Below are positions 25,256 through 26,456 of a stretch of DNA of 64,000 bases, piece by piece. Both the position numbers and the translations under genes were made by a program. The DNA is from Escherichia coli (GTDB taxonomy: Bacteria; Pseudomonadota; Gammaproteobacteria; Enterobacterales; Enterobacteriaceae), in assembly GCF_016903815.1 (NCBI RefSeq), contig NZ_CP069973.1; one strand, written 5' to 3'. The notes under the pieces were generated by a model. That model searched no databases. It was not told the origin of the DNA and saw only the letters and a list, made by a program, of their open reading frames with translations. Each line of letters starts with the position of its first letter. The first letter of the stretch is position 1.

Positions 25256-25289
25256 CCTTACAACATTGCCGGATGCATGCCAACCGTAG

Positions 25290-25325
25290 GTCGGATAAGA
25301 CGCGTCAGCGTCGCATCCGACTTTG
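25290..25325. repeat. REP (repetitive extragenic palindromic) element downstream of ubiF
   Basis: gtaggtcggataagacgcgtcagcgtcgcatccgac matches the REP/BIME palindromic-unit pattern. Confidence 0.6.
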
Positions 25326-25375
25326 AAGGATAAGACGTGTCAACATCGCATTCGACATTGAATGAACGCAGAAAA

Positions 25376-25404
25376 GCAAAAAGCTCGCCGAAGCGAGCTT
25401 TTTT
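25376..25404. terminator. Bidirectional rho-independent terminator (aaaagctcgcc-gaa-gcgagctttttt) shared by ubiF and the tRNA operon
   Basis: Perfect 8-bp stem flanked by an A-run and a T-run. Confidence 0.7.
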
Positions 25405-25408
25405 AATG

Positions 25409-25483
25409 TGGCTGGGGTACGAGGATTCGAACCTCGGAATGCCGGAATCAGAATCCGGTGCCTTACCGCTTGGCGATACCCCA
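25409..25483 (-). tRNA. glnX: tRNA-Gln (anticodon CUG)
   Basis: 75-nt cloverleaf ending in CCA; anticodon loop ttCTGat read from the reverse complement. Confidence 0.9.
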
Positions 25484-25520
25484 ACTGGGTGCACTTACGA
25501 TGTAAGCGTCTTGAATAAAT

Positions 25521-25595
25521 TGGCTGGGGTACGAGGATTCGAACCTCGGAATGCCGGAATCAGAATCCGGTGCCTTACCGCTTGGCGATACCCCA
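25521..25595 (-). tRNA. glnV: tRNA-Gln (anticodon CUG)
   Basis: Identical copy of the preceding tRNA-Gln(CUG). Confidence 0.9.
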
Positions 25596-25643
25596 ACAAA
25601 TTGGTTTTTGAATTTGCCGAACATATTCGACACATTCAGAATT

Positions 25644-25720
25644 TGGTGGCTACGACGGGATTCGAACCTGTGACCCCATCATTATGAGTGATGTGCTCTA
25701 ACCAACTGAGCTACGTAGCC
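25644..25720 (-). tRNA. metU: tRNA-Met elongator (anticodon CAU)
   Basis: 77 nt; anticodon loop ctCATaa; ends in CCA. Confidence 0.9.
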
Positions 25721-25735
25721 AGATTGTTTCTTCGA

Positions 25736-25810
25736 TGGCTGGGGTACCTGGATTCGAACCAGGGAATGCCGGTATCAAAAACCGGTGCCTTACCGCTTGG
25801 CGATACCCCA
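25736..25810 (-). tRNA. glnW: tRNA-Gln (anticodon UUG)
   Basis: 75 nt; anticodon loop ttTTGat. Confidence 0.9.
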
Positions 25811-25844
25811 ATAACCGGGCGGTGAACCGCTTACTCGAAGAAGA

Positions 25845-25919
25845 TGGCTGGGGTACCTGGATTCGAACCAGGGAATGCCGGTATCAAAAACCGGTGCCTT
25901 ACCGCTTGGCGATACCCCA
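25845..25919 (-). tRNA. glnU: tRNA-Gln (anticodon UUG)
   Basis: Identical copy of the preceding tRNA-Gln(UUG). Confidence 0.9.
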
Positions 25920-25942
25920 TCCGTACAACGCTTTCTGGTGAA

Positions 25943-26027
25943 TGGTGCGGGAGGCGAGACTTGAACTCGCACACCTTGCGGCGCCAGAACCTAAATCTGG
26001 TGCGTCTACCAATTTCGCCACTCCCGC
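25943..26027 (-). tRNA. leuW: tRNA-Leu (anticodon UAG), long variable arm
   Basis: 85 nt; anticodon loop ttTAGgt; ends in CCA. Confidence 0.9.
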
Positions 26028-26035
26028 AAAAAAGA

Positions 26036-26112
26036 TGGTGGCTACGACGGGATTCGAACCTGTGACCCCATCATTATGAGTGATGTGCTCTAACCAACTG
26101 AGCTACGTAGCC
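26036..26112 (-). tRNA. metT: tRNA-Met elongator (anticodon CAU)
   Basis: Identical to the metU copy. Confidence 0.9.
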
Positions 26113-26151
26113 ATCTTTTTTTCGCGATACCTTATCGGCGTTGCGGGGCGC

Positions 26152-26180
26152 ATTATGCGTATAGAGCCTTGCAGCGTCAA
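26152..26180 (-). promoter_or_regulatory. Candidate sigma70 promoter of the metT tRNA operon (-35 TTGACG, 17-bp spacer, -10 CATAAT, GC-rich discriminator)
   Basis: Hexamers read on the minus strand about 40 bp upstream of metT; the GC-rich discriminator is typical of stringently controlled stable-RNA promoters. Confidence 0.5.
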
Positions 26181-26456
26181 CCTCTTTTTCAAGGAAAATT
26201 GCTCGAAAGTGACTGTTTGGTTAGGTTGCGAACAGCGTGGCGCTATATTCGTCAATTATTGTTTACTTTGTGTTTTTTCCCCACCCTACAGCCATTCTTT
26301 TGTCATACAGGATGAAATTCGGAATTCAACAATAGTGGTGGGAAATTAATCAATGAAATACTGGCCTACAGTGATGAGTTGTCAAACAGTGATGTGGCAA
26401 ACCCGGAACATTTCCTTACTGCATATCAGAATCAACAAGCAGCTCAATAACTGAAA

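Follow-up and report, generated by a model that had tools for sequence, protein, structure and literature searches.

The metT (supB-E) tRNA operon of Escherichia coli: a known seven-gene transcription unit and its gene number among complete genomes

The window analysed here is a stretch of 64,000 nucleotides of Escherichia coli DNA. When ARAGORN is run over the whole 64-kb window, seven tRNA genes are found in all, every one of them on the minus strand between positions 25409 and 26112. In the direction of transcription, the array begins with metT (26112-26036), which encodes an elongator tRNA-Met with the anticodon CAU and is followed by leuW (26027-25943), encoding tRNA-Leu(UAG) and representing the sole gene copy for this anticodon. 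Two genes for tRNA-Gln(UUG) come next, glnU (25919-25845) and glnW (25810-25736), and a second gene for tRNA-Met(CAU), metU (25720-25644), then precedes glnV (25595-25521) and glnX (25483-25409), which both encode tRNA-Gln(CUG). The CCA end is encoded in all seven genes. An independent search with the Rfam model RF00005 recovers the same seven genes at 57.6-71.1 bits, where the gathering score is 29, and with E-values between 4e-11 and 7e-15. Gene names and order match those annotated in K-12 MG1655, from glnX (b0664) through metT (b0673). The seven-gene array listed in a preliminary description of this DNA is thus borne out by ARAGORN, by Rfam and by the K-12 annotation. That description gave no strand; the array being on the minus strand, its gene order runs from right to left in window coordinates.

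Three pairs of genes in the array consist of identical copies, as had also been claimed at the outset: metT and metU agree at 77 of 77 bases, glnU and glnW at 75 of 75, and glnV and glnX at 75 of 75. The two types of Gln gene, with anticodons UUG and CUG, differ from each other at 7 of 75 positions. Pairwise identity ends 0-2 nt from the borders of the tRNA genes, and the six spacers, which measure 8, 23, 34, 15, 48 and 37 nt in transcription order, are mutually unrelated, no two of them being alike. Other Rfam matches in the region all lie far below their gathering scores: those to Plastid-ycf2 are antisense look-alikes of tRNAs, those to rsmX, isrB and istR are overlaps with the terminator or with a tRNA, and the match to naRNA4 lands on REP elements. 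The short ORFs that run over the array are mechanical and show no sign of coding.

The array is located between ubiF and asnB, as in the K-12 reference annotation, within the local order ybeZ, miaB, ubiF, the seven tRNA genes, asnB, nagD and nagC. Over the 1.2 kb around it, the sequence matches the chromosome of E. coli strain 7/2 at 100% identity, and the array region, adjoining ubiF, is found in 5,425 of 5,426 complete E. coli genomes. Alignment with the K-12 chromosome (NC_000913.3) shows that all seven tRNA genes are identical to their K-12 counterparts. From promoter to terminator, the only differences are one A fewer in an A-run of the leader (position 26123), a metT-leuW spacer that is one T shorter (8 versus 9 nt), and changes at four spacer positions (25631, 25609, 25501 and 25499). 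The metT operon of K-12 has the same gene content in the same order, lies on the same strand with respect to ubiF and asnB, and has the same tRNA sequences, promoter and terminator. With a probability of about 0.97, the array is therefore read here as the long-known E. coli metT (supB-E) tRNA operon, transcribed as a single unit. This operon, classically named supB-E, was reportedly first sequenced by Nakajima, Ozeki and Shimura in 1981-82; the metT operon and its seven-gene layout are already known and ordinary.

Upstream of metT, a promoter scan detects a sigma-70-like site on the minus strand (26180-26152), in which a -35 hexamer TTGACG (26175-26180) is separated by a 17-nt spacer from a -10 hexamer CATAAT (26152-26157) that ends 39 nt ahead of metT. 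The site agrees with the consensus at 10 of 12 positions and is the only one in 2.2 kb on both strands. Such a match to the consensus is no better than chance, as 1 site is seen where 1.8 are expected in shuffled sequences, and support for the promoter therefore rests on its position and its conservation. To the downstream side, the -10 hexamer is followed by a GC-rich discriminator, GCGCCCC (26145-26151), while an A/T-rich region GAGCAATTTTCCTTGAAAAAGA (26183-26204), directly upstream of the -35 hexamer, has the appearance of an UP element.

Conservation was evaluated on 120 loci from species other than E. coli, which were pulled with a pattern for the leuW anticodon arm, by considering what precedes the first Met gene of complete arrays. 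The resulting alignment of 16 taxa includes Escherichia, Citrobacter, Enterobacter, Superficieibacter, Pantoea, Acerihabitans, Photorhabdus and an Enterobacterales MAG, and also takes in Orbaceae, Haemophilus, Rodentibacter and three Vibrio. Among the non-coding columns of this alignment, conservation is highest at the -35 hexamer, the -10 hexamer and the discriminator, while the flanks diverge. In particular, the invariant columns correspond to an AAAAA tract in the A/T-rich region (26189-26185), to TTGAC in the -35 hexamer, to G.ATAAT at the -10 hexamer and to CGC..CG at the discriminator, including the G at 26144. The candidate promoter that had been proposed about 40 bp upstream of metT, with these two hexamers and a GC-rich discriminator, is hence supported by its position and by conservation across the 16 taxa.

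A close parallel is offered by the E. coli promoter of tyrT (tyrTV), the textbook case of a tRNA promoter under stringent control. The metT discriminator and the two bases that follow it form the string GCGCCCCGC (26151-26143), and the K-12 tyrT promoter has this same string immediately downstream of its -10 hexamer. The likeness extends into the leader, as CCGATAAGG, found at 26138-26130 in the metT leader, is shared with the tyrT leader at about 6-8 nt into the transcript. The two promoters differ, however, in the -35 hexamer (TTGACG in metT, TTTACA in tyrT), in the -10 hexamer (CATAAT versus TATGAT) and in their upstream regions. The 5' end of the tyrT precursor is pppGCUUCCCGAUAAGG and, by analogy with it, transcription of the metT operon is predicted to start at the invariant G at 26144, which would give a 5' leader of 32 nt (26113-26144). 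The leader has no significant structure (z -0.96). The motif CCGATAAGG, common to tyrT and partly kept as far as Vibrio, might be a functional element of this class of promoters.

Sequence traits of the rrn P1 and tyrT class of stringently controlled stable-RNA promoters are found here, namely near-consensus hexamers, an A/T-rich upstream region and a discriminator that is rich in GC and separates the -10 hexamer from the start. The label of a stringent-type promoter, applied in the preliminary description, holds as a sequence class, given a conserved, GC-rich discriminator equal to that of tyrT, whereas control by ppGpp is a prediction from that likeness. On these grounds the metT promoter would be expected to be under stringent (ppGpp/DksA) control, and the A/T-rich region upstream of the -35 hexamer probably works as an UP element. 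A search of the accessible literature for direct data on ppGpp or stringent control of the metT promoter returned none of relevance, one paper mentioning the metT operon for gene dosage only (PMC1183518), and no mapping of the start site of this promoter was found in the accessible literature either. Published reagents and RNA species are consistent with the predicted start. Indeed, the primers used to produce the full precursor in vitro map to window positions 26145 (forward) and 25357-25377 (reverse) (PMC3985628), so that the forward primer begins one base off the predicted start. In addition, a species of about 125 nt that is seen in an RNase P mutant corresponds to metT with its unprocessed leader (PMC2241853), in agreement with the length of about 117 nt expected from the predicted start to the 5' end of leuW.

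The same species bears on the possibility that the array is transcribed largely by read-through from asnB, which lies immediately upstream on the same strand, and not from the proposed promoter. Against this possibility, the band of about 125 nt agrees with transcription starting near 26144 (PMC2241853), a GC-rich hairpin with a T-rich stretch behind it lies just past asnB (about 26480-26437), and the promoter core is invariant across taxa whose upstream sequence differs completely. Read-through from asnB as the main source of transcripts is therefore considered the least probable of all the explanations weighed here.

At the other end of the array, the stem of a Rho-independent terminator begins 5 nt past glnX. 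The terminator (25366-25403, minus strand) comprises an 11-bp stem (25403-25378) closed by a UUCG loop and, behind it, a U-rich tail, and folds at -17.9 kcal/mol (z -4.1); a stable, GC-containing hairpin is followed by a U-run, as is proper to intrinsic terminators. The span given in the preliminary description (25409-26180) leaves out this terminator at 25403-25378. Within the array, the 48-nt metU-glnV spacer (25596-25643) contains a hairpin (25638-25609), the fold of the spacer reaching -11.4 kcal/mol (z -3.5) with none of 200 shuffles as good. In the two spacers inside the Gln pairs, structure is marginal or not significant.

These elements can be placed alongside what has been established for the RNA of this operon, which is a standard substrate for studies on RNase E and RNase P. 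Northern blots reveal one full-length transcript with the seven tRNAs; RNase E takes off the terminator, which belongs to the primary transcript, and the tRNAs are separated by RNase P, whose activity is inhibited if the terminator is retained (PMC2241853). RNase E also cleaves 2 nt and 39 nt after metU (PMC4191395), and the hairpin at 25638-25609 sits exactly between these two sites. Cleavage after metU is allosterically activated by the upstream glnW tRNA (PMC9841416).

An intermediate composed of metU, glnV and glnX, known as band III, builds up in an RNase E mutant (PMC2241853). This species, together with the resemblance of the array to two Met-led modules, would be compatible with two or more transcription units, in which an internal promoter, for instance before metU, drives the Gln(CUG) half. 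However, band III does not extend upstream of metU and is gone in RNase P mutants, and it is therefore a processing product (PMC2241853). Furthermore, the spacer between glnW and metU has just 15 nt, a single promoter-like site is present in 2.2 kb on either strand, and the full-length transcript of seven tRNAs has been observed (PMC2241853). More than one transcription unit is thus very improbable, if marginally less so than read-through from asnB.

With the array as a single unit, its expression would proceed as follows. The sigma-70 promoter at 26180-26152, with its GC-rich discriminator, would fire at about 26144, and the polymerase would cross the 32-nt leader and the seven CCA-encoding tRNA genes before halting at the hairpin at 25403-25378. 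RNase E then strips the terminator and cuts after metU, while RNase P cuts at each mature 5' end and thereby separates the tRNAs, whose tails are trimmed by 3' exonucleases. A single promoter, encoded CCA ends and a Rho-independent terminator are shared with other polycistronic tRNA operons of E. coli that RNase E and RNase P process (argX-hisR-leuT-proM, glyVXY and secG-leuU), as is the sequence of endonucleolytic separation and exonucleolytic trimming. Unlike in those operons, most of the separation in the metT operon is carried out by RNase P, RNase E acting mainly at the terminator and after metU.

The metT transcription unit is among the essential ones in a systematic deletion study (PMC11480407; see also PMC6265465). 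It holds all the cellular copies of elongator tRNA-Met, tRNA-Leu(UAG), tRNA-Gln(UUG) and tRNA-Gln(CUG) (PMC11480407), and it is essential because every copy of these four tRNAs comes from it.

The identical copies in the array had been put forward as recombination substrates that could change the copy number of tRNA-Gln, with a comparison of copy number across strains as a check. The potential substrates for exchange are identical stretches of 75 bp (glnU and glnW), 75 bp (glnV and glnX) and 77 bp (metT and metU), set 109, 112 and 392 bp apart, respectively. Junction sequences were built as predicted from exchange between repeats and searched in 5,426 complete E. coli genomes. A genome was counted only with a single near-full-length alignment to a junction, at an E-value cut-off of 1e-120 that is out of reach for the wild-type layout; query coverage of at least 80% was unusable for counting junctions, since neighbouring pieces are joined and wild-type loci reach 100% too.

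At least one deletion junction is present in 193 of the 5,426 genomes. The junction expected from the collapse of glnU and glnW into one gene occurs in 71 genomes, the collapse of glnV and glnX in about 140, a figure obtained by subtraction, and both Gln collapses together, which leave five genes, in 20. Expansion junctions are likewise found in 71 of the 5,426 genomes; among 60 expansions listed, 34 have three Gln-UUG genes, 24 have three or more Gln-CUG genes, and 2 are duplications of the metT block. Overall, exact junctions of unequal recombination are found in about 260 of 5,426 genomes (about 5%, which is an upper bound), with 5, 6, 8, 10 or 11 genes in the array. Single genomes illustrate these forms: EcPNK006 has six genes with a clean glnU/W collapse junction, E24377A (NC_009801) has six with a single Gln-CUG gene, GM4792 has ten, five of them Gln-CUG, CT29 has eleven through duplication of metT-leuW-glnU-glnW, and GF8 has eleven arranged as Met-Leu-Gln three times plus Met-Gln. 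The proposal that the duplicates act as recombination substrates is supported by these results, as the junctions predicted for glnU/glnW, glnV/glnX and metT/metU all occur, and the comparison across strains yields arrays of 5, 6, 8, 10 or 11 genes in about 260 of 5,426 genomes, of which a part is assembly artefact.

Indeed, leuW is missing anywhere in 13 assemblies classified as complete, even though it is essential. The MC1061 assembly has a two-gene array that lacks leuW, glnU and glnW, and the TUM1223 assembly has a four-gene array in which essential genes are missing. A real two-gene operon in MC1061 and similar assemblies is ruled out, since the essential genes leuW, glnU and glnW would be missing. 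Batch effects are also apparent. BL21(DE3), TOP10, XL1-Blue, XL10-Gold and Stbl4, which are commercial strains of two unrelated lineages (B and K-12), all have three Gln-UUG genes and near-consecutive accession numbers, and of the 60 glnU/W collapses listed, 22 come from the GF and AVS projects. The copy-number signal is, then, in part assembly artefact, and the collapsed loci without essential genes that RefSeq holds in assemblies labelled as complete are a warning for tRNA gene counts taken from assemblies.

Extending this reasoning to its limit, all variants could be errors of assembly or polishing at short tandem repeats, the array being fixed at seven genes and the identity of its copies due to purifying selection only. 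The 13 assemblies without leuW, the two-gene and four-gene arrays, which cannot be viable as assembled, and the batch effects in the five laboratory strains and in the GF and AVS projects are all in keeping with this explanation. It is at odds, however, with the distribution of some of the variants. The six-gene form of E24377A, an early reference genome, recurs in O111:H8 and O26 strains and in pig ETEC, which come from different laboratories; the genome of E24377A (NC_009801) presumably dates from the Sanger era, and these six-gene carriers belong, as we assume, to phylogroup B1. In parallel, LY180, AQ15 and SL112 have the same collapse, with coordinates that are equal or nearly so, and this points to a common lineage.

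Evidence from other genera points in the same direction. The same array sizes occur as fixed forms across genera, with four genes in Pasteurellaceae, six in Pantoea, Photorhabdus, Acerihabitans and one Enterobacter, seven in Citrobacter, E. albertii and Enterobacter, eight in Superficieibacter and up to eleven in Vibrio, and the fixed six- and eight-gene versions argue against artefact as the sole source of variation. In addition, where paralogues have moved 4-10 nt away from those of E. coli, they are identical to each other within the genome in 13 of 17 diverged sets, a result not expected from purifying selection alone. Among the exceptions are Citrobacter werkmanii and an Enterobacter MAG, in which the Gln(CUG) copies differ by 5 nt. 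This pattern is a signature of concerted evolution, the paralogues of the array evolving in concert across genera. Some of the copy-number variation is real, given a form common to strains from several laboratories and variants that are fixed in other genera, and the explanation of all variants as artefact is held to be unlikely, though less so than the alternatives on transcription discussed above.

The reading preferred for the variants is that of exchange between the copies. The identical tandem genes would serve as short direct repeats, at which unequal homologous recombination or gene conversion would keep the copies identical and would now and then drop or add a unit of 109, 112 or about 392 bp (283 bp where glnU and glnW are already one gene). 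It is a tentative proposal, put at somewhat short of even odds, that gene number in the metT array is naturally polymorphic within E. coli, about one in twenty complete genomes carrying 5, 6, 8, 10 or 11 genes by unequal exchange, and that the supply of tRNAs for Gln, Met and Leu might be tuned in this way. The survey suggests that an essential array changes its gene number at percent-level frequency and at junctions predicted from its repeats, and such changes may have adaptive value.

The idea that tRNA genes are flexible in copy number is an established one (PMC7661048, PMC10954465). In Pseudomonas fluorescens SBW25, tRNA gene dosage likewise shifts by duplication, and populations show flexible gene sets, the events being large-scale tandem duplications that were selected after deletion of a tRNA gene (PMC7661048, PMC10954465). 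In the metT array, by contrast, the units measure 109-393 bp, exchange takes place at the identical tRNA genes, and the evidence comes from comparison and not from experiment. A survey of copy number at the metT locus was not found in the literature searched, and the locus is not discussed by McDonald et al. 2015. The survey of 5,426 complete genomes is thus the sole addition made here to what is known of the operon, a small addition rather than a discovery.

The array also offers a view of what duplication can allow. The classical supE and supB suppressors derive from the metT operon. In the laboratory strain TUM22199, the last gene of the array (the glnX slot) has the anticodon CUA in place of CUG and corresponds to an amber suppressor of the supE type. 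The twin of this gene keeps its normal function, which shows one value of having two copies.

The leader of the metT operon carries the motif CCGATAAGG (window 26138-26130, minus strand), which is also present in the leader of K-12 tyrT (locus L009), where the distance from the start to the motif is nearly equal to that in metT and the discriminator, GCGCCCCGC, is identical. In a cross-taxon comparison, CCGATAAGG is retained in Enterobacterales; in Pasteurellaceae the motif takes the form GCCGATATGG, and two of the three Vibrio species compared have it as CGATAAGG. Since folding of the metT leader did not return a significant fold, CCGATAAGG, if of any importance, would work as a primary-sequence element. 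Two homopolymers differ from K-12: the A-run at window 26123, in the leader, counts 7 residues vs 8, and the T-run at 26034, in the metT-leuW spacer, differs in length, this spacer being 8 nt vs 9 in K-12.

The metU-glnV spacer contains a significant hairpin (25638-25609, minus strand; -11.4 kcal/mol, z -3.5), with none of 200 shuffles folding equally well. RNase E cleaves 2 and 39 nt 3' of metU (PMC4191395), and the hairpin is located exactly between these two published sites. At the end of the operon, the terminator stem (25378-25403) has an A-run next to one arm and a T-run next to the other, and could therefore be bidirectional, also ending the convergent plus-strand transcript of ubiF; the terminator scan called it only for the minus strand. 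The interval separating this terminator from the ubiF end contains REP-type palindromic elements (25262-25360), whose weak Rfam match to naRNA4 is sub-threshold (30.9 bits vs a gathering score of 59.5).

Identity of the copies within a genome is otherwise general, but exceptions include Citrobacter werkmanii (L032) and an Enterobacter MAG (L120), where the two Gln(CUG) genes of one array differ by 5 nt and look like two alleles still awaiting homogenisation. In the Vibrio arrays at L017 (Vibrio hannami), L028, L067 and L096/L097, the Met-Leu(UAG)-Gln(UUG) set is strongly amplified, reaching up to 11 genes, among them six Leu(UAG) genes of identical sequence, and Gln(CUG) is missing from the array.

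Within E. coli, leuW is absent altogether from 13 of the 5,426 'complete' assemblies, and in some of these the array is reduced to Met plus Gln or Met plus three Gln with essential genes missing, as in the RefSeq entries of MC1061 (L004, NZ_CP195014.1) and TUM1223 (L005, NZ_CP135722.1). Such arrays most likely arose when the 77-bp and 75-bp repeats were collapsed during assembly. Five commercial laboratory strains of B and K-12 lineage, with near-consecutive accessions (NZ_CP080620.1, NZ_CP081007.1, NZ_CP081008.1, NZ_CP081009.1 and NZ_CP081489.1), all have Gln(UUG) in three copies, which points to an artefact of the pipeline and not to a separate duplication in each of the five. In the laboratory strain TUM22199, the gene in the glnX slot (L003, 510-584) has its anticodon changed from CUG to CUA; this gene, which has no annotation in RefSeq and is labelled 'Pyl' by ARAGORN, is a supE-type amber suppressor.
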